A stretch of DNA of 11,456 nucleotides from IMG/VR virus record IMGVR_UViG_2671180770_000008, positions 1 to 11,456 of that record; one strand, given 5' to 3'. The position numbers and the translations under genes were made by a program. The notes under the pieces are model-generated. The model searched no databases and had not been told where the DNA came from. It saw only the letters and a program-made list of their open reading frames with translations. Shown one piece after another: positions 1 through 11,456 of this stretch. The first letter of the stretch is position 1; the number at the start of each line of letters is the position of its first letter. The stretch comes from a virus. Taxonomy: Duplodnaviria; Heunggongvirae; Uroviricota; Caudoviricetes.

Positions 1-47
1 TACAGTCCTTTTTTCTCCAGACATTCTGCCACGTGATCATGTAGCAT
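1..47 (-). CDS. 5' end of an unidentified CDS running off the left edge (MLHDHVAECLEKKGL...)
   Basis: ATG at 47..45 preceded by GGAGG (RC of 54..58) with a 6-nt spacer; only 15 codons visible, product not recognisable. Confidence 0.4.
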   Translation of the reverse strand, partial: MLHDHVAECLEKKGL

Positions 48-101
48 AAGTGACCTCCGATTATCTACAGACTGCCATCCTGAATTTACCTTCCCTTAAT
101 G

Positions 102-199
102 AAATAACAATAAAAAACAAACCACACAAAAACAATAAAATAACACACAAAAAAAACTAAATAATAAACAAAAATAATCACCTTATTTTATTATTTTTT
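102..199. repeat. 98-nt G-free A/C-rich low-complexity tract in the AT-rich region upstream of the edge ORF
   Basis: Direct reading: no G on the plus strand from 102 to 199 (aaataacaataaaaaacaaaccacacaaaaac...). Confidence 0.7.
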
Positions 200-281
200 G
201 AGGGGGCAATTACTGAACAAAAAACGCTGACTATATACTCAAAACCAAACAACTATTCTGCCAATCAGGTATCATGGCAAC

Positions 282-303
282 ACACGGAATTACCGTGTTT
301 TTG
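282..303 (+). terminator. Candidate Rho-independent terminator on the plus strand
   Basis: Stem acacgg (282..287) / ccgtgt (293..298), loop aatta, then ttttt (299..303). Confidence 0.4.
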
Positions 304-512
304 CCTTCTCTGCCCATACAATACGGGCATATACTTCATACTCTATTGTAATATTTCTATCCATGCGCCCCACTCCATTTACCTGTAAATAATATTCAAA
401 ATATTTATCACAGAAATCGTTTTTGTCCATGAACTGAGCACACTATAAAGTCCGGAACTGACTCTTTGTTAAATTACCTTAACGTTACCAGTAACACCTT
501 CATAACAAAACA

Positions 513-980
513 TCACGGTATACACTGGGTACGGATATATTCCTGTGCTCCTTCCAGTTGCTTCTGCATTGCCATCAGCCGTTCTCTGAGGATGAAATAA
601 TCCCGTTCAGCGGCTTCTGCCAGTCGGGGACCGGTTGCATTATCCACGCCGGAGGTGATGGGGGCTTTACGCAAGGAGCCTGGACAGTTGGCGTTGATGC
701 GCAGGCGCTTACGACCAGCGGCAACATCAGCACGCAGAGTTTCATTTTCAGCTCTCGCATCGGCTAATTCCCTCGAGTATCTGGCATCAAGTGCAGCGAC
801 ATCACGCTGGCGTACCTGCATATCAGTAATTGTCACGTTCGCCAGCTTCAGCTCACTGGCTTTTTTATCGCGTTGCGCTTTGTAGGTAATGGCGTTATCG
901 CGGTAATGATTCAGCCCCAGACTAAGCACACCACAGGCTACCAGCAGGACAATAATCACCACACACAGAACACGGTTCAT
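513..980 (-). CDS. Rz: Rz i-spanin (inner-membrane spanin subunit)
   Basis: 155 aa; N-terminal TM segment then coiled-coil; strong similarity to lambda Rz as I recall it ([43 protein letters not shown]); ATG at 980 preceded by GAGGGGGA. Confidence 0.93.
575..760 (-). CDS. Rz1: Rz1 o-spanin lipoprotein, embedded in the +1 frame of Rz
   Basis: 61 aa; lipobox LVVSAC, proline-rich [26 protein letters not shown] closely matching lambda Rz1; entirely nested inside Rz. Confidence 0.9.
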
Positions 981-987
981 ATCCCCC

Positions 988-1119
988 TCACCCCACCAGC
1001 CATGACAAAGTTAAGACGCGCCAGGCAGTGGAAAAGCAAATAGCAACCAGCATTAGTGAAAATGAAATGCCGACGATTACACAGAGGATCTTCGCCAGCG
1101 TTATGAGCTTGTCTGACAT
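988..1119 (-). CDS. 43-aa small hydrophobic protein ([43 protein letters not shown]), unknown function
   Basis: ATG at 1119 preceded by AGAGGA plus 6-nt spacer; stop TGA 990..988 lies 7 nt before the Rz start; one predicted TM helix. Below the ORF-track size cutoff. Confidence 0.45.
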
Positions 1120-1131
1120 GCTTAATCCTCT

Positions 1132-1314
1132 TCACGATTTCAACGCAATGACCAGTTTTGCCAGCCCATACAGCATCGGAGACACAGCAATACCGACCGC
1201 CACCCACTTAATAGCAAAAGCCAGCGCTCTGCTGACGTCATCAGTTACAGGCGCTTTCAGTTCAAGGCCGTTTTTCATAGTCAATCTCAACAGAATTCGT
1301 TTATACTTTCCCAT
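1132..1314 (-). CDS. 60-aa small protein with C-terminal TM helix (MGKYKRILLRLTMKNGLELKAPVTDDVSRALAFAIKWVAVGIAVSPMLYGLAKLVIALKS), unknown function
   Basis: Internal ATG of track ORF 1132..1392; the longer N-terminal extension reads through a terminator hairpin and is rejected; AGGGAG-like RBS upstream; stop 12 nt before the next RBS. Confidence 0.45.
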   Translation of the reverse strand: MGKYKRILLRLTMKNGLELKAPVTDDVSRALAFAIKWVAVGIAVSPMLYGLAKLVIALKS

Positions 1315-1351
1315 GTTCTCCCTTGCCTTACTCAAGGTCAGAAACACAAAA

Positions 1352-1380
1352 CCCCGTTTGCGGCCAACAAACGGGGTTTT
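1352..1380. terminator. Bidirectional intrinsic terminator
   Basis: Perfect 9-bp inverted repeat ccccgtttg (1352..1360) / caaacgggg (1368..1376), 7-nt loop, A-tract on the left and T-tract on the right. Confidence 0.7.
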
Positions 1381-1469
1381 ACTTTTATTCACTTAGTTTT
1401 TGCCAGTTCGCAGGATTTCGTGTTATCCGCCCGCGTTGGCCAACGTCATTTTTCAGCAAAATATTCTGC

Positions 1470-1860
1470 TTATCTGTCAATTCCCCAGCACGCCAGTGCA
1501 CTTTCCTGGTCTCGCCGGGATACCTGGCCGTAGCAATTATTTGAGCGGATACGGCAGTCTCTGCCACCGTCCTTAATCCACCAGCGAATCGCTTCGCAGG
1601 CACCTTTTCGATCACCTGCATTAATCCGTCTGTAAAACGTAGACGGGAAACACTTACCGGGGCCAATGTTATAAGGACAAAATGACGCGATACCCGCCTT
1701 CTGGGGTTCGGTCAGCGGTACTTTAATATTGCGCTCCACCCACTCCAGCGCCTTATCACGTTCAATGGCGTTACCCACCAATTTCCGGTGCCACAGTAAC
1801 AGTAATCTTATCCGGGTAATTATTTATCCCTTTAACAACCAGTTCGTATTTTTTCTTCAT
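1470..1860 (-). pseudogene. Disrupted endolysin: C-terminal ~100 aa of a GH24 phage lysozyme (RrrQ / Stx-phage R type) joined out of frame to an unrelated 29-codon ORF (MKKKYELVVKGINNYPDKITVTVAPEIGG)
   Basis: Frame 1470..1781 encodes NAIERDKALEWVERNIKVPLTEPQKAGIASFCPYNIGPGK...GACEAIRWWIKDGGRDC...ALACWGIDR, matching the C-terminal half of lambdoid lysozymes; there is no SAR/signal segment or catalytic Glu-Asp-Thr region; the ORF starting at 1860 (good RBS GGGGAGAG) stops at 1773..1771 in a different frame. Confidence 0.7.
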
Positions 1861-1864
1861 CGCT

Positions 1865-2080
1865 TTACTCTCCCCGCGCCGCCTTACGACGGTCCTCTCT
1901 GATTTTGAAATACAGGTTAGTCAGATACGTCAGCAGGCCAAACAGCAGACTCCCCAGCACACCTATCGCCACCCACTGGGACGGAGAGACTTTGTCCAGC
2001 AGCTGCAGTAACCAGTATCCCGTCCCCACCGCTGACGTGGTGTATGACACACCTGTTGTGATTTTTTCCATCTGGTACAT
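1865..2080 (-). CDS. S: Class II holin (S21-type pinholin), 71 aa, with dual-start motif
   Basis: [10 protein letters not shown]...[40 protein letters not shown] closely matches phage 21 S / EssD-EssQ holins; Met1 and Met4 dual start; RBS GGGAGA upstream. Confidence 0.92.
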
Positions 2081-2155
2081 ACCCCGTCTCCCGCAATCCG
2101 GAAGCTCACAACAACAGGAGGGGCATCAGCTCACACCGACAGCCCCTGCGTATGG

Positions 2156-2425
2156 TTACATCATCATTTCGCCGCCAGGCTGAGGCTCACTGCTACCGTC
2201 AGGCTGAGACACAACGCCATCTGAAACAGCACTGTCACCCGCGCCGTCTTCAGGCTCAGGAGCAGCCGGTCCCCCCAGCAGCTCATCCAGAATGGCATCC
2301 ACTTCAGCATCAAGACGCGCCTCAAGATTCTGGCGGAGTTGCTGTTTCAGTGCGCTTCTGACTTCTTCAGAGCGCAGGACGTCCTTCACTGCTTCAGCAG
2401 TGACCAGAGATTTTATTTCTGACAT
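2156..2425 (-). CDS. Hypothetical acidic protein, 89 aa (MSEIKSLVTAEAVKDVLRSEEVRSALKQQ...)
   Basis: Internal ATG of track ORF 2156..2581; the upstream extension overlaps the better-supported 60-aa gene in another frame; weak RBS. Confidence 0.5.
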   Translation of the reverse strand: MSEIKSLVTAEAVKDVLRSEEVRSALKQQLRQNLEARLDAEVDAILDELLGGPAAPEPEDGAGDSAVSDGVVSQPDGSSEPQPGGEMMM

Positions 2426-2462
2426 GGGATTTTCTCGTTGAAAGGTGTTGTTAAGAAAGTTG

Positions 2463-2645
2463 CTACGAAATGAGAGGCTCTTCGGGTTTTGTTCCGGCTG
2501 ACTGGCTGGCGCTGATTTTTTCCGCCGCCGCGGCATCAATCTTTTTGCGTATATAGTTCCGGATAACCTTATACCCGCCACTTACCAGATATAACGTGCA
2601 CACCACCGTGCAGAAATACAATAAAATAAGCTGTACAAATCTCAT
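2463..2645 (-). CDS. Small membrane protein, 60 aa (MRFVQLILLYFCTVVCTLYLVSGG...)
   Basis: ATG at 2645 preceded by GGGAGG; hydrophobic N-terminal helix. Confidence 0.55.
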   Translation of the reverse strand: MRFVQLILLYFCTVVCTLYLVSGGYKVIRNYIRKKIDAAAAEKISASQSAGTKPEEPLIS

Positions 2646-2739
2646 TATCCCTCCCGGTTATTGATATGGTGTTGACATCGTTAATACCTGTTGGTTAAAA
2701 AAGTGTCCTGCATGTTTTGCTTTGGATATAACGACATTT

Positions 2740-2787
2740 GCCGCCGGTTCTGGCTCCTTGTTTTCCCTGCCCCGGCGGCCTTTTTTT
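2740..2787 (+). terminator. Intrinsic terminator on the plus strand (antisense to the late operon)
   Basis: 8-bp GC stem gccgccgg (2740..2747) / ccggcggc (2772..2779) followed by ttttttt (2781..2787). Confidence 0.55.
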
Positions 2788-2792
2788 CCTGC

Positions 2793-4730
2793 TTACGGGT
2801 TATTCACTTCCACTGTTATACTTTCAATCAGCACCGGATATGTCGCACCGCTAGTGATATCGGTCACGCGCAATTTGTCTGCCGTAAACGTGCCGACCGG
2901 TGACTGTGACAGCATGAACGGCGTCCCGTCCTTACCATCAATGACCGGCGTCACCTCAATACTGTTGTTACCGGCAAAACGGAAGCCCAGCGTATGCCAT
3001 TCGTTATCAAATGCGCCGAATGACCCCAGCTTCGTGTTCTGACCAGCATTTCCCTTGTGGTACATCACATTAAGGTCTGTGGCATCGCTCTGTACGTAAA
3101 ACGACGCCAGCAGGTTATGACCGGCATTACCTTCCAGTGTGACGCCCTGAGGCAGTGAAGAAACCGGCCAGTACAGCGCCAGTGCGTACTGATTAGCTGT
3201 CAGTGTGCCATCAACTTTAAAACGACAACTGATAAGCCCGCCCTTCTCCAGCAGGTCTGCGCCATTACCGGCATCATGCTGCATAAACCACGAGGAACTT
3301 CCTGTCTGTTTGGTCCACCTCAGCGCCTTACCTCCTGCAGCACCTGCATCATCAACTACCAATGCACGCCCTCCTTCAGCTCCCCATCCCTGCGGATTCA
3401 GTAAACCACCTGACTCTGTTGCACGGTAATAAAGCAGCGTTGTCACTGATTTCCCGTCCGTTGACGGTGTTGATGGTGTGTCCGGTGACGGCTTCTCATC
3501 CGGCGGCATCACAACCTGTTCCCCACCCACCAGTTCAGCCGTCCGTCCTGCATGGAGAAGAATCGCTGAGGCAAGACGGTCAGAAATAATCCCCCTGCGT
3601 GCCCATGAGCTGAAATGGCTCGCACGGTCTGCTGACGTCCAGTTTGCCGACGTCCGGGAGGCCGCACCGTAATATCCTGATGCCGGAATATCCGGGTCTT
3701 CTTCCGGTTTGTTCGTCGGGACATTTGCTCCGTTCTCATCGGTCATGAACGGCACAAAGTGAATATTCTTTTCCGTTTTGTTTTTGTAACTGCCGTACAC
3801 CGTCTGGTAAGTGGATTCGCTCTTCTGCTTCCAGAAATAAGTTGTGTCTCCACATATCCAGGGAACACCGTCAGCAGAACCACCAGCGCACTGTCCCACC
3901 ATATCTGCAAGGTCCGTACGATATTGTTCCACTACTTCTGTAAAACGGGCTGTGTGATTTGCTGGCGTTCCGTCAAAGTCAAATTCCCCCTGCATCCACA
4001 CCACGGCAAGCAGCACATTTTTCGGGTTCTTTGCCAGCGCGGCTTTTGTACGACCGATGAGATCCTTATACAGCGGCCTGCCCACACCCCAGCGGGTATA
4101 ACTCTCTGAGGCACCGGTCACGTCACTGTATGTTCCATCTGCCCCGGTGGTGAAAGCTGAACCACCACGGCAGCACGGAACCAGAAGAATACCCGCATTC
4201 GCCGGTATAAACGGCAGCAGCTTTTTGGCAATATGCAGCCCGTGCCCCACGGTTCCGTACTGACCTTTCGACAGGTCAGCTTTCGGATGGTTAAGACGGC
4301 TCATGTCCTGTACATCATGCAGACAGTGGTCTGCCGGAATAATGTCGTTATATTTACAGGGAGCGCCATCCGGCGTCACTGTGCTGCGACGAGCCAGTTG
4401 CTTTATACGCGGGTCAGGACGGTCATATGTCTGCGGCAGAGGAAGCCCCTCACCGTAAGCCATGCCGTTCGACTGCCCGGCCAGTGGAATAACGTAGTAA
4501 TAATCTGGCTCCGTGGTGACCACTCCCGGATAGCCACCATCCCCCGTGCCGGGCACAACCACTGGCGTGGTCACATCCCCCTCCGCGGCAATCGCCTGCA
4601 TCAGGGTATAAGGGGTTATGGCCACAGGACTACCAAACGGCTGCCAGCCCTCTTTCAGTTTGTGTGTCAGCTTTTCCGCAAGATCTGACGGCGACGCCGC
4701 CCTGACAACATCATAATGTTTAATCGACAT
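2793..4730 (-). CDS. nanS: NanS-p-type prophage sialate O-acetylesterase, 645 aa
   Basis: Strong RBS GGGAGA; N-terminal MSIKHYDVVRAASPSDLAEKL... segment, esterase-type motif YYVIPLAGQSNGMAYG, size and position (between Q and S) as in the NanS-p proteins of E. coli O157 prophages. Confidence 0.88.
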   Translation of the reverse strand: MSIKHYDVVRAASPSDLAEKLTHKLKEGWQPFGSPVAITPYTLMQAIAAEGDVTTPVVVPGTGDGGYPGVVTTEPDYYYVIPLAGQSNGMAYGEGLPLPQTYDRPDPRIKQLARRSTVTPDGAPCKYNDIIPADHCLHDVQDMSRLNHPKADLSKGQYGTVGHGLHIAKKLLPFIPANAGILLVPCCRGGSAFTTGADGTYSDVTGASESYTRWGVGRPLYKDLIGRTKAALAKNPKNVLLAVVWMQGEFDFDGTPANHTARFTEVVEQYRTDLADMVGQCAGGSADGVPWICGDTTYFWKQKSESTYQTVYGSYKNKTEKNIHFVPFMTDENGANVPTNKPEEDPDIPASGYYGAASRTSANWTSADRASHFSSWARRGIISDRLASAILLHAGRTAELVGGEQVVMPPDEKPSPDTPSTPSTDGKSVTTLLYYRATESGGLLNPQGWGAEGGRALVVDDAGAAGGKALRWTKQTGSSSWFMQHDAGNGADLLEKGGLISCRFKVDGTLTANQYALALYWPVSSLPQGVTLEGNAGHNLLASFYVQSDATDLNVMYHKGNAGQNTKLGSFGAFDNEWHTLGFRFAGNNSIEVTPVIDGKDGTPFMLSQSPVGTFTADKLRVTDITSGATYPVLIESITVEVNNP

Positions 4731-4816
4731 CGAATTTCTCCCGTGTACAGGAACAGAGTTAAAAAGCCGGAACCGGAATCAAATCACAGGATGACCATCT
4801 GCCAGTGGCTGGTCGT

Positions 4817-4843
4817 AAAAAAAAGGCCGCGCCATGCGCAGCC
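4817..4843 (-). terminator. Intrinsic terminator on the minus strand, upstream of nanS-p
   Basis: Minus-strand RNA GGCUGCGCAUGGCGCGGCC (8-bp stem, 3-nt loop) followed by UUUUUUUU (RC of 4817..4824). Confidence 0.7.
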
Positions 4844-5044
4844 GGAAATAAAGGGATAACGATGATAGTTTGAGAAAAACAGAAATAACACTTTTGTGGC
4901 AAAGCATGGTGCCGGGTGCCTCCCGGTGAATTCAGTACCAGCACCTGAATCCGCGATTATCCCATATACCTGGTTGCTGATTGCCCCTCCGCACAGGGGG
5001 ATTCACCATGCAGTAGTATTTTTAATAAACAGTAAACAAAAAAA

Positions 5045-5212
5045 TCAAGCATTATGCAGGCTGTTTCTTTTTATCACCGGCCACAGCAATACCACAATGC
5101 CGCAGACCAGCCCCCCATCCGCCAGCACCGACATGATTCTGCTGGTGAAATCCACCATCACCACCAGAAACAGCAGGAGTGCAGCCACAGCCAGGCGCAG
5201 TTTTACCGTCAC
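5045..5212 (-). CDS. 55-aa small membrane protein (VTVKLRLAVAALLLFLVVMVDFTSRIMSVLADGGLVCGIVVLLWPVIKRNSLHNA), GTG start overlapping the TerB-like stop
   Basis: GTG 5212..5210 overlaps TGA 5211..5209 (GTGA); GGAG 8 nt upstream; two hydrophobic stretches. Below the ORF-track cutoff. Confidence 0.4.
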   Translation of the reverse strand: MTVKLRLAVAALLLFLVVMVDFTSRIMSVLADGGLVCGIVVLLWPVIKRNSLHNA

Positions 5213-5680
5213 AGGTGATTCTCCAGACGAAGCCCCAGAACACCGGCAATCTCTTCCAGCACCTTGCGCTCTTCCGGCTCAATTTCGCCGTCTGCCTCCG
5301 CAATGGCCACCGCCACATCCAGCACATCTTCCGCTTCACGCGTATCGTGTTTCACATCCTCGATCTCACGTAACGCCGCACGACGACCAATTTTAAAGTT
5401 CGTATCCAGCTGACCGATAATGGTTGCGCTAATCGCATTAATTTCTGACGTAAACGCGGACAGCGCTGGCTGATTACGCAGTACCTGTTCGATCTTCGCT
5501 TTCTAGGAAGCCTCACATTCACCATCTGCACAGGCCACCAGGTATGCGGCGTTAATCACCGTCTGTGCCAGATCGCGTTTCTCAAACTTTCCTTTTTCCG
5601 GTTAACGTGACACACCAATAACTCTTGTCGAAAAAGCCAGCAAGCTGAAAGACCGGTATTCACAACCACCAGCGCGTTTA
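5209..5680 (-). pseudogene. TerB-family (tellurite-resistance TerB-like) gene disrupted by an in-frame amber codon and a 5' frameshift
   Basis: Frame 5601..5209 encodes ...EKGKFEKRDLAQTVINAAYLVACADGECEAS*KAKIEQVLRN...DVLDVAVAIAEADGEIEPEERKVLEEIAGVLGLRLENHL with TAG at 5505..5503; the N-terminal part (..GFFDKS..) sits in another frame; no usable start codon. Confidence 0.55.
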
Positions 5681-5704
5681 CTGTACTGGCGTGATTTCAG
5701 TCAT

Positions 5705-5727
5705 AAAAAAACCCGCCTGGCGACGGG
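5705..5727 (-). terminator. tR'-like terminator of the short pR' leader transcript
   Basis: Minus-strand RNA CCCGUCGCCAGGCGGG (6-bp stem, 4-nt loop) followed by UUUUUUU. Confidence 0.75.
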
Positions 5728-5763
5728 TGTAAAAAATCTTCTAACGTCAGGCATAAAACGCCC

Positions 5764-5803
5764 ATCGTTAGGGCAAATTTACCACAGATTCGGGAAAAAT
5801 CAA
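5764..5803 (-). promoter_or_regulatory. pR'-like late promoter with qut / pause element
   Basis: On the minus strand: -35 TTGATT (5803..5798), 16-bp spacer, -10 TAAATT (5781..5776), then TGCCCT AACGAT GGG, closely resembling my recollection of the lambda pR' -10 / pause region (GGGTAAATTTGACTCAACGATGGG); starts directly after the Q stop codon. Confidence 0.7.
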
Positions 5804-5808
5804 CAAAG

Positions 5809-6630
5809 CTATCTGGTCACCTTTTTCAGTTGTTGTTCTGCCCATGCTTCTTCAATATCAAACTGCACCACCAGCGTATCGTAAAAACGTTTAACTGTTT
5901 TTTTCCATGTATCAAGAGATATGGCATCGGTTACATTACATATGGCATTAAATGCCTCCGTTGAAGGTAATCTTTCATAGCCACGACCACCACAACGCTG
6001 GCAGTCTCTGATAACAGGCATACCACGTTTTACCGACTCTTCACGATGAATGGCAACACCGCGCCCACGACAATCTTTACAGGCGGTGGAAACCTCCCCC
6101 TTCCCTCCACACTCCGGACAGGCAACTTTTACCACCTCCCTGACTTTTTTCCATTCCTCCCAGTAAGACGGATACACGCCTTTTGTGCACTTTGCCCACA
6201 CTGGCGGCTTACCATCCGGATACTGGATCTTGTTTGTAAAAACCTCGCTTTCAATAAATTTTTTTCCGTGACAACAGGGGCACTGTTTTTTGCTCGCCGC
6301 GCTACGGGCATAATCTTCAAACGCATACGAAGCCATAATACGCATCACTGCCGGTTTTATTTCTGCCGGGAGTTTTTTTAACGCCGCCACGCGATCACAC
6401 CGACTGAGTGCATATTCTGTCAGCAATTCTGTTGCCCGCTCTCTGTCATTCATACTAATGCCCATTTTCCCAAGGAACGCAGAAAACCCCATCTCAGCCC
6501 AATTCTGTGTCATGCCCTGCGCGGCCATCACATCAGTGATACTCAGCGTATCTTTCGACGTTGAGGCCGATGCATCAGTCAGGCCGGGGGATTTTGGGGA
6601 GTAGTATTTCGGTAAATCTTCCAGTTTCAT
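5809..6630 (-). CDS. Late-gene antiterminator Q (Q-like, zinc-binding), 273 aa
   Basis: Immediately upstream of the pR'-like promoter; several CxxC pairs (CPCCHGKK, CPECGGKG, CKDCRGRG, CQRCGGRG); position equivalent to quuQ / quuD. Confidence 0.8.
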   Translation of the reverse strand: MKLEDLPKYYSPKSPGLTDASASTSKDTLSITDVMAAQGMTQNWAEMGFSAFLGKMGISMNDRERATELLTEYALSRCDRVAALKKLPAEIKPAVMRIMASYAFEDYARSAASKKQCPCCHGKKFIESEVFTNKIQYPDGKPPVWAKCTKGVYPSYWEEWKKVREVVKVACPECGGKGEVSTACKDCRGRGVAIHREESVKRGMPVIRDCQRCGGRGYERLPSTEAFNAICNVTDAISLDTWKKTVKRFYDTLVVQFDIEEAWAEQQLKKVTR

Positions 6631-7001
6631 TTTTTGACCTGCCCTCCAAGCATTATGGGGTAAATCTTCACCCCCAGACGTCCACCAGATACTGGCTGAG
6701 CACGAACGATATTGATTTCATCAAACTGCTCATCGTCCATTAGCAACCCCGCATGCGTCAGCGCATCCAGCGGCGCTTTCAGAATATTGTCCAGGTCACG
6801 GCGGCGCTTATCCGGTGGCTCGGCAATAATCTTTATCGCCAGCCTTCCGGACAGGCTTAATTTCAGCCGCTGCTGGCGAACAATAAGCGCCACAGCCCGG
6901 CGATAACGCTCACCGGCTTTTGATACAAAATATGTGCTGCCACGACGTCGCCAGTAGGTGTTCACCGTCGGCGGGTAAAGCAAAACAAACTCTATACGCA
7001 T
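6627..7001 (-). CDS. rusA: RusA-family Holliday-junction resolvase
   Basis: PDKRRRDLDNILKAPLDALTHAGLLMDDEQF and SGGRLGVKI align with E. coli RusA ([40 protein letters not shown]); RBS GAGG; stop overlaps the Q start (ATGA). Confidence 0.92.
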   Translation of the reverse strand: MRIEFVLLYPPTVNTYWRRRGSTYFVSKAGERYRRAVALIVRQQRLKLSLSGRLAIKIIAEPPDKRRRDLDNILKAPLDALTHAGLLMDDEQFDEINIVRAQPVSGGRLGVKIYPIMLGGQVKK

Positions 7002-7013
7002 CAGTAACCTCTT

Positions 7014-8063
7014 TTACCCGAGCACGCCGGTTGCAAAGGCGTGATCAAGAAAACGAAAAATTAAATCAACCTGGGAACCATGCTTTTCTTCGAACGCCAG
7101 CGGATCCGCATGAAGCTCGTTGTGATGCTCCCGACACAGCGGTAGCGTGAAAATATCGTGGGATTTTGTTCCCATTCCGCCCTGACCATGACCAATCAGA
7201 TGATGAGGATCGTCCGCTGGCTTACCACAACACGCACACGGCTGTGTCTTTACCCAGCGTGTGTATTTCTCATTTACCCAGCGGCGACGTTTAGGTCGTT
7301 TCATGAAGGATTCCGGAGACTCCGGATCAACGGCAATGCTGACCACCGTCTTTTCCTGTGGTGGGTTCTGTTGCTGGTGGGTGTGAGACGGTAGCGCAAT
7401 ATTTTTTGTGCGCTGCTTCAGTATGCTGGTGGCGGTCTGTTCTCCCGGTATGATGTCGCTTTCACGGTATACGGAGCGGATTTTTTCCGCACGCAACCCC
7501 AGCGAAAGACGTAATACCGCTTCCGGTAGCGCGTCCGCCACCTGATTGCGGACCGCCCACCAGGATAATTCAGCCAGAGATAATTCACGCTCCTGTGCGC
7601 CATTCATTGCGTGACGGATGATGTCAATCATCCAGGCGGCCAGATTCTGTTGAGCAAGTTGATCCAGTGAATCAGATGTCTGCTCCCGCAGCTGGTTGTC
7701 GCAGTGCCAGCACAACACCATCGCGCCGGTACCGTAACGGTGAATGACGGTTTCGCTGTGATGATAATCACCGTGTAGCCACTGGCAGGATTTCACGTGA
7801 CGTAATAACCAGTCAGACAGTGCACCAGCGCCACCCGCAGCACGGATCACCCGCTCATCGCTGAAAAATGGCAGTAGTGATTTATCTTCCGCCAGCGGCT
7901 GGTGAACGGCAGGTACAACCCCGGACGGCAGAGCTCGCATGCTTTTTGGTTCCGGCTCCACCAGTATTCTGCCGTTATGGAATGCTGACATTGATTCACG
8001 GCCTGGCTTAACGATAACCAGACCGAGTTCCGGTACCAGAACAGGTCGAAGTAATACCCGCAC
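7014..8063 (-). CDS. DUF968-family prophage protein (YdfU-like) with C-terminal HNH-like Cys/His motif
   Basis: 349 aa, position as ydfU in Qin (rem - ydfU - quuQ); motif CACCGKPADDPHHLIGHGQGGMGTKSHDIFTLPLCREHHNELH; GTG start 8063 with GGAGG upstream, overlapping the upstream stop. Confidence 0.65.
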   Translation of the reverse strand: MRVLLRPVLVPELGLVIVKPGRESMSAFHNGRILVEPEPKSMRALPSGVVPAVHQPLAEDKSLLPFFSDERVIRAAGGAGALSDWLLRHVKSCQWLHGDYHHSETVIHRYGTGAMVLCWHCDNQLREQTSDSLDQLAQQNLAAWMIDIIRHAMNGAQERELSLAELSWWAVRNQVADALPEAVLRLSLGLRAEKIRSVYRESDIIPGEQTATSILKQRTKNIALPSHTHQQQNPPQEKTVVSIAVDPESPESFMKRPKRRRWVNEKYTRWVKTQPCACCGKPADDPHHLIGHGQGGMGTKSHDIFTLPLCREHHNELHADPLAFEEKHGSQVDLIFRFLDHAFATGVLG

Positions 8064-8064
8064 A

Positions 8065-8343
8065 TTACCTCCAGATCCGTTGCTGGAATGTGCGGGACGG
8101 ACGCGGTGGCCGTTCGGAGTAAGGGAGCCTGACGGAGATTATCCAGTGACGGTAGTCGAGGCTAAGGGCTTTTTTAACCTCGCATCCGCGCCTGCGGTAA
8201 CACTGAATGAGCCATTCGGCCTGTTCTTCAGTGCATGGGGGATGCTGGTACCAGTCAGATTTGAATGCGTGAAAACACCGTCCGCGCCTGCTGGCAAAGA
8301 CGGCAGAATCATCAGAATTGTATAATTTGGTATCGTGCGCCAT
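8065..8343 (-). CDS. Hypothetical Cys-containing protein, 92 aa, in the position of rem
   Basis: Internal ATG of track ORF 8065..8424 (MAHDTKLYNSDD...); the longer extension would read through the hok terminator. Confidence 0.5.
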   Translation of the reverse strand: MAHDTKLYNSDDSAVFASRRGRCFHAFKSDWYQHPPCTEEQAEWLIQCYRRRGCEVKKALSLDYRHWIISVRLPYSERPPRPSRTFQQRIWR

Positions 8344-8415
8344 CGGTTGTCTCTGCTGGCGCAGCAGGTGCCAGTTGTTCAGGCTGGCGTGCGAATTGTA
8401 AACCAGAATGCCAGG

Positions 8416-8440
8416 AAAAAACAAAACCCGCCGAAGCGGG
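8416..8440 (-). terminator. Intrinsic terminator at the 3' end of the hok mRNA
   Basis: Minus-strand RNA CCCGCUUCGGCGGG (5-bp stem, UUCG loop) followed by UUUUGUUUUUU. Confidence 0.7.
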
Positions 8441-8510
8441 TTAAGTGCGGGTGCGTTGAGGATGCCTGATTCATCAGAGGTGGCGAGGGATTTCTCCCTC
8501 GCCGGGTCTC

Positions 8511-8666
8511 TTACTCCTCAGGTTCGTAAGCTGTGAAGACAGCGACCTCCGTCTGGCCGGTTCGGATTCGTACCTCGCAGAGGTCTTTCCTCGTTACCAG
8601 TGCCGTCACTATGACGGTTAAACAGATGACGATCAGGGCGATTAACATCGCCTTTTGCTGCTTCAT
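8511..8666 (-). CDS. hokD: Hok-family type I toxin (HokD/RelF-like), 51 aa
   Basis: MKQQKAMLIALIVICLTVIVTALVTRKDLCEVRIRTGQTEVAVFTAYEPEE, which I recall as identical or near-identical to E. coli HokD; RBS AAGGAG 9 nt upstream. Confidence 0.9.
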   Translation of the reverse strand: MKQQKAMLIALIVICLTVIVTALVTRKDLCEVRIRTGQTEVAVFTAYEPEE

Positions 8667-8871
8667 AGCCTGCTTCTCCTTGCCTTTCGGCACGTAAGAG
8701 GCTAACCTACATGTGTCTAGCATGAAATTGACCTCAGATTAATGTTAGGCGTCTTGCAGGACGCGTAATGTTAACTGGGGCTTTTCTCTGTCTGCCTTTT
8801 GGTGTTCATGCCTGAGGCAGATAGCCTCAAGCACCCGCAGCAATTCTACTTAACTCTCGCTTTACAGCAAA
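8667..8871 (-). promoter_or_regulatory. hok mRNA promoter and leader: -10 TAGAAT (8848..8843), tac-like hairpin, mok-like upstream reading frame (ATG 8723) in frame with hok
   Basis: Leader UUGAGGCUAUCUGCCUCA... parallels the plasmid R1 hok 5' end; the 5' element (RC of 8825..8840) is complementary to a 3' element at 8445..8461 (fbi-type long-range pairing). Confidence 0.6.
8715..8790 (+). ncRNA. Putative Sok-like antisense RNA (approximate extent)
   Basis: Plus-strand promoter candidate TTGCCT (8680..8685), 17 bp, TAACCT (8703..8708); transcript would be antisense to the mok-like start/RBS; no clean terminator found, 3' end uncertain. Confidence 0.25.
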
Positions 8872-8882
8872 CCGTTTTTACC

Positions 8883-8904
8883 CGATATGGGAATTCCCAT
8901 ATCG
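8883..8904. repeat. 22-bp perfect palindrome CGATATGGGAATTCCCATATCG
   Basis: Direct reading; centred on GAATTC; between the 34-aa ORF stop and the hok promoter -35. Confidence 0.8.
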
Positions 8905-8912
8905 TAATGAAT

Positions 8913-9017
8913 TCAGTTCCCTAGTCGATCCATCAAAAACACAACCAGGCAGTAAACGCCCACAACAGCAACAACAGCCAGCGCACCTTCCATTGCCAGT
9001 GAGATATCATCCGACAT
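8913..9017 (-). CDS. 34-aa small hydrophobic peptide (MSDDISLAMEGALAVVAVVGVYCLVVFLMDRLGN)
   Basis: ATG 9017 preceded by AAAGGAGGG with a 4-nt spacer; single predicted TM helix; verified codon by codon. Below the ORF-track cutoff. Confidence 0.45.
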   Translation of the reverse strand: MSDDISLAMEGALAVVAVVGVYCLVVFLMDRLGN

Positions 9018-9052
9018 ATTCCCTCCTTTGGTGTTAATCCCGGCGAACGTTT

Positions 9053-9136
9053 TTACCCCCACCGACAAATAACATATACTAAAAAAGCGATAGCCATAGC
9101 AACGCCTGTAATTGCAAATGCTTCAGGCCAGTTCAT
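9053..9136 (-). CDS. 27-aa small hydrophobic peptide (MNWPEAFAITGVAMAIAFLVYVICRWG)
   Basis: ATG 9136..9134 overlaps the TGA stop of the upstream DUF551 gene (ATGA); GGAGG 7 nt upstream; single TM helix. Confidence 0.45.
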   Translation of the reverse strand: MNWPEAFAITGVAMAIAFLVYVICRWG

Positions 9137-9717
9137 TGGCGCACCTCCTGCGGCGGTTCTGGTAGCGGCATCCAGTCGGTTACATTGCGGCTCTGTGTTT
9201 CGAAAAATTCATCACCATCACGGACTACATCAAAAAACTCACCGTCTCGATATTGCGCATAAAGAACGAATGCGCCATCACATAAAATAATTACGTGCTG
9301 ACCGTCATCCGGCATTCGCTCACTACAGCTTATCCAACCATCCAGAGTTACCGGATAGTTGGTTGACGTTTCCGAGATTTCCCGAAAATTATTGGTTGAC
9401 GAACCCTTCTTTTCCCGAAAGTTTCCAGCCTGAAGCATGGCGGCGCTGTCTGGCGGGGCAGCATATAGCGGCACGTATATTTCCGGTTCCTTATCAGCAC
9501 CGGGTTGCTCTTCCAGTGAGAATGTCTTTCCGGTAAATCGATTCATATAAAGCACGGGCTCTGCTTCCAGCGAAGCCTGAGCAACAAGGGCCAGTGCTAA
9601 ATCCAACTCAATTGCCTCGAGAGAATTTTTGAATGCTGTCTGTTTTACTGCAAATTTCATCGCCTTTACATTTTCACTAACATGACTGATTAACTGCTCT
9701 TTTGTAAAAGTGGTCAT
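9133..9717 (-). CDS. DUF551-domain phage protein, 194 aa from ATG 9717 (alternative GTG start at 9777)
   Basis: C-terminal DUF551-like signature WISCSERMPDDGQHVIIL...DWMPLPEPP; AGGAG RBS 6 nt before ATG 9717. Confidence 0.7.
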   Translation of the reverse strand: MTTFTKEQLISHVSENVKAMKFAVKQTAFKNSLEAIELDLALALVAQASLEAEPVLYMNRFTGKTFSLEEQPGADKEPEIYVPLYAAPPDSAAMLQAGNFREKKGSSTNNFREISETSTNYPVTLDGWISCSERMPDDGQHVIILCDGAFVLYAQYRDGEFFDVVRDGDEFFETQSRNVTDWMPLPEPPQEVRQ

Positions 9718-9773: not shown

Positions 9774-10169
9774 TCACAATACCGCCTCCTGAAAATTGCC
9801 CTGATAGAACGCCAGTACACGCAGCATAACTTCACTCTTCCGGCACTCGCCACAGATTATGTTCTGTTGTCTGTCGTAGCGGTGTATTTCTCCGTCTGGT
9901 AACTTTCGAATCAATGTCTGGTCGGTTGTTTTCTCCGCTGCCTTACGCCATACGCGATACACCTGTTCTGATGTAAAAACACCGTATTTACCGGGCATGT
10001 ATAAATTGCCGCAAGCCAGTACATCCACAAGGCAACGTCTGACTGAATGCCAGCCTGCTCCCGTCGCTCTCTCCAGTTGTGATATCGTCATGCGTTCATT
10101 TTTGCGTACCAGCCCGATAATTCGGGCCTTCAGTTCTTCACGCTGTTCGTGTGTAAAAGGTTTCGCCAT
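9774..10169 (-). CDS. Hypothetical protein, 131 aa, with predicted N-terminal HTH-like segment
   Basis: ATG 10169 with GGAGG at a 5-nt spacer; RMTISQLERATGAGWHSVRRCLVDVL resembles an HTH; function not recognised. Confidence 0.7.
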   Translation of the reverse strand: MAKPFTHEQREELKARIIGLVRKNERMTISQLERATGAGWHSVRRCLVDVLACGNLYMPGKYGVFTSEQVYRVWRKAAEKTTDQTLIRKLPDGEIHRYDRQQNIICGECRKSEVMLRVLAFYQGNFQEAVL

Positions 10170-10931: not shown

Positions 10932-11456
10932 TTACTTCACAACCCTCTGATTGCTGACATTTGGACGCCAGCTATCCCAGTTAAACGTCACCCATCGACC
11001 ACCGCTCATGGTCATCCGGTCCATAATCCTCTCACCAAGAAGCGTGCTCATTGCGGCATGATTCAGGTTTGTTAACATCCCGACACTGCACAGTGATGCT
11101 GTCCGGCGATCAATTATCTGGTGTAATACCACCTGCTCGTTTTTCGTCTCCCGCTGAACGCCTATTTCATCCAGGACCAGCAAATCAACCCCGCAAAGCT
11201 CCTGTAAAAATTTTTCCCCGGATTTGCCGTTGTCGTAGCTGTCATGCAACACGCTCATGACATCAGACACGGTGACGATAATCACGCTGCGCCCCTTCGC
11301 CATCAGCCGGTTACCCATCGCCGCTGCAAGGTGATTTTTCCCGGTGCCGGTTTTACCGCTGAACACAAAATTCGTGCACCCGGTCATCAGTTCGTCAGCT
11401 ATGGATTTGGCCTGGCTCAGCGCGTATTTTTGCCCGTCGTTCTGCACCTGATAATT
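10932..11456 (-). CDS. DnaC-like helicase loader / replication protein (IstB-type AAA+), C-terminal part; N-terminus beyond the window
   Basis: Walker A GKTGTGKNHLA, Walker B LLVLDEIG, and tail GERIMDRM...WVTFNWDSWR align with E. coli DnaC (GPVGTGKTHLA, LLVIDEIG, GERVMDRM...WVIFNWDSYR). Confidence 0.9.
   Translation of the reverse strand, partial: NYQVQNDGQKYALSQAKSIADELMTGCTNFVFSGKTGTGKNHLAAAMGNRLMAKGRSVIIVTVSDVMSVLHDSYDNGKSGEKFLQELCGVDLLVLDEIGVQRETKNEQVVLHQIIDRRTASLCSVGMLTNLNHAAMSTLLGERIMDRMTMSGGRWVTFNWDSWRPNVSNQRVVK

Follow-up and report, generated by a model that had tools for sequence, protein, structure and literature searches.

A deletion joining ydfR to the endolysin gene in the lysis cassette of a lambdoid prophage of Escherichia coli

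The lysis cassette and its neighbours

The stretch of DNA analysed here, hereafter the window, is an entire 11,456-bp draft contig of Escherichia coli (CYAV01000093.1, assembly GCA_001277695.1), and all feature coordinates are given as window positions with the stop codon counted in. The lysis genes occupy the minus strand in the 5′ to 3′ order holin, ydfR stub, lysozyme remnant, two small ORFs and Rz/Rz1. Every element described in a first-pass annotation of the sequence was found in its place and on this strand. The same annotation had called the holin and the spanins intact, which is borne out by Pfam matches and by 100% identity to annotated proteins of O145 and of the Sakai prophage Sp14.

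The holin (71 aa, 1865..2080, minus strand) is a class II holin of the phage-21 S type. It matches PF04971, “Bacteriophage P21 holin S”, with E = 1e-32, covers positions 1–63 of the 64 of this profile, and shares 100% identity with WP_000284518.1, annotated as a class II holin in O145 RM12761. As read from the sequence, the protein starts with the dual-start motif MYQM (M1-Y-Q-M4) and continues with two hydrophobic stretches (about residues 15–28 and 35–57), followed by a charged C-terminus. On the basis of family membership it is presumed to be a pinholin. At the other end of the cassette lies the gene of the inner-membrane spanin subunit Rz (155 aa, 513..980, minus strand; PF03245, E = 2e-46), whose product is 100% identical to ECs_2738 of Sakai Sp14. 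Embedded in it, in another frame, is the gene of the outer-membrane lipoprotein spanin subunit Rz1 (61 aa, 575..760, minus strand; PF06085, E = 4e-19), which carries a lipobox-like LVVSAC and is 100% identical to ECs_2739 of the same prophage.

Two small ORFs, both intact and on the minus strand, separate the spanin genes from the lysozyme remnant. The first is a hydrophobic ORF of 43 aa (988..1119), 100% identical to WP_001280929.1 and without a Pfam match. The second, of 60 aa (1132..1314), is 100% identical to WP_001303555.1, as found in O145 and Sp14; a longer GTG-start reading that contains it (1132..1392) gave no Pfam match. Between the lysozyme stop, which it closely follows, and the 60-aa ORF lies a perfect, G+C-rich hairpin of 13 bp (1348..1380) with A/T runs on both sides. 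This hairpin is terminator-like in both directions and is kept in all related contigs that were aligned; presumably it lies inside the Q-antiterminated late transcript.

The late antiterminator Q (273 aa, 5809..6630, minus strand; PF03589) equals the antitermination protein of FRIK1989 in length and is encoded upstream of the late operon that holds the lysis cassette. The upstream genes further comprise RusA, DUF968, a NanS-p-type SASA esterase, DUF1378 and DUF826. The 11.5 kb visible here thereby has the make-up of a defective lambdoid prophage, with a truncated endolysin next to Q, RusA, DUF968, holin and spanins.

The endolysin remnant and the ydfR stub

What is left of the endolysin gene, which encodes a GH24 lysozyme of the SAR-endolysin type, spans 1470..1772 (minus strand) and comprises codons 78–177 plus the stop, N78 being the first residue. 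All 100 of its residues are identical to the C-terminus (78–177) of the intact lysozyme of the FWSEC0007 prophage. Within the ORF at 1470..1781, the match to PF00959 (Phage_lysozyme) is restricted to positions 52–125 of 125 (E = 7.3e-13). Gene callers place the start of the remnant at GTG 1778, and the resulting 102-aa protein was deposited with the contig as CTT71436.1, “phage lysozyme”.

The lysozyme of intact relatives is 177 aa long, and it can be aligned from end to end with the phage 21 lysozyme structures (3HDE and 3HDF) and with that of DLP12 RrrD (4ZPU). This alignment takes in the N-terminal Gly/Ala-rich region as well as E35/D44/T50, which, counted on the sequence of the intact relatives, are spaced as E-X8-D-X5-T, the canonical lysozyme motif (PMC9239132). 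The motif E35-X8-D44-X5-T50 falls wholly within the deleted part, leaving the remnant without it. Residues 8–24 of the intact relatives, GLSAAVLALIGAGASAP, align with R21 in its N-terminal region and are judged to be the SAR segment from their Gly/Ala/Ser-rich composition; this segment is likewise deleted in the window. The comparison thus agrees with the earlier proposals that only the C-terminal ~100 residues of a GH24 lysozyme are left and that the catalytic N-terminal part is missing: 100 codons remain, and the SAR segment, E35, D44 and T50 are all found in the deleted interval. The remnant itself lacks catalytic residues, an export signal and any obvious ribosome-binding site, and is expected to be without muralytic activity, the catalytic Glu being gone. 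Matches to muramidase families were not obtained for any other ORF of the 11.5-kb window. In its present state, the endolysin gene is a pseudogene.

The position directly upstream is taken by a 29-codon ORF, MKKKYELVVKGINNYPDKITVTVAPEIGG (1771..1860, minus strand), which is the remnant of a ydfR (DUF1327) gene. It matches PF07041 (DUF1327/YdfR) at positions 1–29 of 93 with E = 9.3e-13 and corresponds to the first 29 of the 114 codons of YdfR in Sp14 and O145, so that homology stops well short of the full-length family. Both the assignment of this ORF to a YdfR N-terminus and the description of its stop as lying one frame off from the lysozyme, as put forward in the first-pass annotation, are sustained. 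The TAA (1773..1771) is a product of the junction and stands one base out of step with the lysozyme frame. Homologues with this short lysozyme N-terminus were not found besides the same deletion allele or contig-edge fragments. Among the other short lysozymes of the same 90% cluster, most of those read were without a start Met and were named “partial”; these are taken as fragments cut by contig ends and hence as uninformative here.

The new stop at the junction (1771..1781, minus strand) reads GGG-TAA-C, and the lysozyme frame corresponds to skipping one base. Both GTG (1778) and TTG (1781) are situated in the lysozyme frame just ahead of this stop; the 103-aa reading that starts at TTG had no match in the exact-protein look-up. 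Reinitiation or a +1 slip at the junction is conceivable and would provide a C-terminal fragment or a fusion, the active site being absent either way. A +1 slip at GGG-TAA-C that fuses YdfR(1–29) to lysozyme 78–177 was considered and rejected as a source of an active enzyme, its product still lacking the catalytic motif and the SAR domain.

Breakpoints and recurrence of the deletion

Nucleotide alignment to Sakai Sp14, O145 RM12761 and O103:H2 FWSEC0007 revealed one gap in otherwise 97–99.8% identical alignments. A deletion junction between the 5′ end of a ydfR-like gene and the 3′ part of the lysozyme gene had been suspected from the window alone, with alignment to intact relatives proposed as the check; all three alignments bear this out and place the breakpoint at 1772..1773 (minus strand) as a single clean gap. 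The dinucleotide TA at this position is common to both parental ends (GGTGGG-TA-ACGCC). Compared with Sp14 and the O145:H28 prophage, the window reads ...GGAAATTGGTGGG-TA-ACGCCATTGAA... across the junction, and in the intact loci the left end is ...GGTGGGTATCCG... and the right end ...CCAGGTTAACGCC... The sequence GGTGGGTAACGCC spans the junction. The ends have no bases in common other than TA (window 1773..1772), or GGGTA versus GGTTA when one mismatch is allowed.

The lost interval was computed as 538 bp versus Sakai Sp14 and 995 bp versus O103:H2 FWSEC0007, the larger figure being due to a 457-bp insert in the latter. The end points of the deletion are identical in the two versions, either of which could be the actual parent. 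Lost with the deletion are ydfR codons 30–114, the intergenic region, and the start, ribosome-binding site, SAR segment and catalytic motif of the endolysin. As 538 bp is no multiple of three, the ydfR frame runs into the junction-made TAA and the lysozyme frame comes to lie one base off. The 111 bases around the junction match Sp14 with 100% identity, in two pieces. In a megablast search with 1400..2100, 4,055 of 5,426 complete E. coli genomes proved to have the region; the full-length matches listed were all in two pieces, spread over a longer stretch of the record, and these two-piece matches are annotated as “class II holin”, “YdfR family protein” and “lysozyme”.

The closest relative of the window is the prophage of FWSEC0007 (lysis cassette at NZ_CP031908.1, 2521774..2524336), in which both flanks of the junction are found within one prophage, in the same order and orientation. 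Identity is 99.78% (4 mismatches) over window positions 1..1776 and 99.44% over 1772..4781. Taken by itself, the left flank (1130..1776) matches several genomes with an intact lysozyme at 99.7% identity. Window and relative share the NanS-p-type esterase, DUF1378, DUF826, the class II holin, ydfR and the lysozyme, and the gene order continues alike with the 60-aa ORF, the 43-aa ORF, Rz/Rz1 and a PerC-type regulator. FWSEC0007 differs in that it has a full 177-aa lysozyme, a longer ydfR and the 457-bp insert between them. An identity of 99.4–99.8% on either side of a single gap argues that the observation is no chance effect, and we are confident that a single deletion, by illegitimate recombination at the 2-bp TA microhomology, linked codon 29 of ydfR with codon 78 of the endolysin gene (GH24, SAR type).

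The 457-bp insert itself occupies the ydfR/lysozyme interval in FWSEC0007 and in strain 2014C-3011, the closest intact relatives. It carries a reverse-strand hypothetical ORF of 87 aa, MNEENTALFDRIF... (3385..3648 in L011, on the minus strand of the locus, and also 3385..3648 in L010), cuts off the 3′ end of ydfR and resembles a moron-type insertion in a lysis cassette. Its absence from the window is explained by the deletion. The deletion might represent an imprecise excision of this insert, beyond which it extends for about 240 bp in one direction and about 295 bp in the other; repeats or mobile-element features were not noted.

A larger rearrangement was also considered, in which an illegitimate crossover of two prophages contributed ydfR from one and the lysozyme from the other. 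Such a mosaic junction was suspected from the comparison with FRIK1989, where identity amounts to 99.5% to the right of the junction (1772..9449) and only 88–93% to its left. However, a jump of this kind is ordinary lambdoid mosaicism, and the FWSEC0007 prophage matches both flanks at 99.4–99.8%, which makes a second parent unnecessary and rules out the suspicion raised by FRIK1989. The crossover is therefore regarded as very unlikely, and the single deletion is retained as the origin of the junction.

The deletion allele is not confined to the window. An exact-protein look-up found the 102-aa GTG-start remnant on five further contigs, one from isolate assembly GCA_002522165.1 and four from ENA metagenome assemblies, at least one of which is labelled human gut. 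Alignment showed the junction to be base-for-base identical in all six assemblies, and the copies differ from each other by 0.1–0.5% (13–21 differences over about 5.1 kb). Judged by contig names, the four metagenome contigs and the isolate contig would seem to come from different assemblers. A junction shared by six assemblies shows the allele to be real and inherited. In metagenome contig L009 (550..1007), the same junction is followed by a 72-aa ORF that replaces the 60-aa and 43-aa ORFs, and by an Rz of 89% identity; here the deletion allele has recombined downstream, or a second phage type holds the deletion. With copies that have diverged and a recombinant downstream module, the deletion is old enough for both processes to have taken place.

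Larger collections were searched for the junction as well. As a contiguous 111-base match it was found neither in the 5,426 complete E. coli genomes nor in GenBank phage records, and exact junction patterns of 26–32 bases were absent from species-representative genomes (one per species), from JGI metagenomes and from IMG/VR. The deletion allele is rare.

That the allele has persisted in at least six samples, its copies having diverged and one of them having a recombinant downstream module, could be read as a sign of selection. The cassette would then be domesticated, serving cargo expression or acting as a pinholin-only suicide module without phage release, or the C-terminal lysozyme fragment would itself be functional. 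If this were true, the host could express the NanS-p-type sialate esterase and the PerC-type regulator from a selected late operon without burst or phage release; alternatively, induction would trigger a self-killing response by the pinholin only. Selection would also explain why the same deletion is met in diverged gut E. coli lineages with all neighbouring genes intact. In addition, the reading that starts at GTG 1778 overlaps the new stop codon, making translation reinitiation conceivable. Conversely, the allele is rare and absent from every large collection scanned, the remnant is devoid of catalytic residues, export signal and obvious ribosome-binding site, and a neutral or mildly beneficial prophage pseudogene can persist without any special function. 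The single synonymous difference among copies of the remnant is too little for a test of selection. Positive support comes from the persistence in six samples and from nothing further. We consider domestication, including a functional fragment, very unlikely, and the same low probability is given to the narrower claim that selection, not drift, kept the endolysin-less cassette.

That the junction is an assembly or sequencing artefact, i.e. a short-read misjoin of near-identical prophage cassettes whose true locus encodes a full endolysin, might be argued from the short draft contig, from a source genome that probably holds several similar prophages and from the lack of the junction in complete genomes, but this is extremely improbable given the identical junction in another isolate genome and four metagenomes, SNPs that exclude simple duplication of a record, and a 2-bp overlap far too short for an assembler misjoin. 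The sequencing or frameshift error that the first-pass annotation had named as a way out for a full-length endolysin fails on the same ground, the junction being reproduced without a base change in five further independent assemblies.

Consequence for lysis and related cassettes

Pinholins of the phage-21 type form holes on the nanometre scale and are paired with SAR endolysins. These holes depolarise the membrane, which brings about the release and activation of the tethered SAR endolysin, and the folded enzyme does not pass through them (PMC9239132). For a prophage with the deletion described above, the following course can be proposed. Upon induction, Q-dependent late transcription would still make the pinholin, which would depolarise the membrane and kill the cell, its holes finding no muralytic enzyme to activate. 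The peptidoglycan would remain undegraded and the spanins, whose action has to await degradation of the wall, would idle, so that no burst is to be expected. Release of particles would need the endolysin of a co-resident lambdoid prophage, unless the prophage is a decaying remnant. Based on the 11.5 kb of prophage visible, it is likely lysis-defective on its own while still encoding a putative pinholin, as the first-pass annotation had proposed, unless an unrelated endolysin is encoded elsewhere in the element or the genome.

Lambdoid prophages of EHEC are known to carry single-function defects, arising from deletions or insertions, that can be complemented by co-resident prophages (Asadulghani et al. 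2009, PMC2669165). The number of places with a cassette homologous to that of the window has a median of 2 per E. coli genome and reaches 19, and FWSEC0007 has 6 places with the lysozyme segment. Where several lambdoid prophages reside in one strain, a homologous endolysin will usually be available in trans. Considering both the multiple cassettes per genome and the complementation between EHEC prophages (PMC2669165), the lysis defect is probably often masked in nature. The breaks at both ends of the contig would fit in with this, being what is expected where flanking sequence recurs in the genome. In contrast to the pool of defective EHEC prophages, the window is defective in its lysis cassette. 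A complete lysis gene set was reported for 11 of 11 lambdoid prophages of Sakai (PMC2669165), which makes a defect in the lysis module less usual than defects in morphogenesis genes.

Among individual systems, a close counterpart is prophage Sp14 of O157:H7 Sakai (ECs_2743-2738: holin, YdfR-like protein, endolysin, Rz/Rz1), with which the window shares the cassette and 100% identical Rz and Rz1; in Sp14, however, ydfR (114 aa) and the endolysin gene (177 aa) are both intact. The relation to the S21-R21-Rz/Rz1 cassette of phage 21, with its pinholin and SAR endolysin, is seen in the holin, a member of the Pfam family P21 holin S, whereas the endolysin partner of the window's putative pinholin is a remnant without SAR domain and active site. 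In phage 21, no ydfR gene is known to separate S from R. The window cassette is a lambdoid lysis cassette of the essQ-ydfR-rrrQ / Sp14 type with a dead endolysin, essQ-ydfR-rrrQ being the cassette of the K-12 cryptic prophage Qin.

The loss of the endolysin is ordinary prophage decay of a well-known kind and does not amount to a new system; it introduces no new family, mechanism or open question. Still, the locus is a tidy natural case of a pinholin deprived of its SAR-endolysin partner, and a strain that carries it could serve as a natural test for the extent to which lysis functions are complemented between prophages. With regard to annotation, both the 102-aa “phage lysozyme” CTT71436.1 and the 29-codon ydfR stub should be flagged as pseudogene fragments.

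Several further features of the window were recorded. The interval from Q to the NanS-p-type esterase (window 4731..5808) corresponds to the site of the tRNA and stx genes in Stx phages. In the window no tRNA or toxin gene was found there, the sole contents being an ORF of the DUF3927 family (about 5045..5212) and a TerB fragment of 48 aa (about 5209..5355). In FRIK1989, the counterpart of the TerB fragment has an internal stop and bears a pseudogene annotation. An ORF at 8511..8723 (minus strand) encodes a type I toxin of the Hok/Gef family (PF01848, E = 3e-23) and corresponds to the hokD annotation in FRIK1989. In the FRIK1989 prophage, which is otherwise 99.5% identical, the segment 9450..10220 has no counterpart; it takes in a DUF977 ORF (9774..10169) and part of a DUF551 ORF and represents a mosaic replacement in the early region. 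As for the ends of the contig, the spacing in the related contig L005 indicates that the gene of the PerC-type regulator should begin about 47 bases from one end of the window and be cut off there. At the other end, an IstB/DnaC-like ATPase ORF (10932..11447), with an alternative GTG start near the contig end, may be cut off as well. Both ends probably fall in sequence that is repeated among co-resident prophages.
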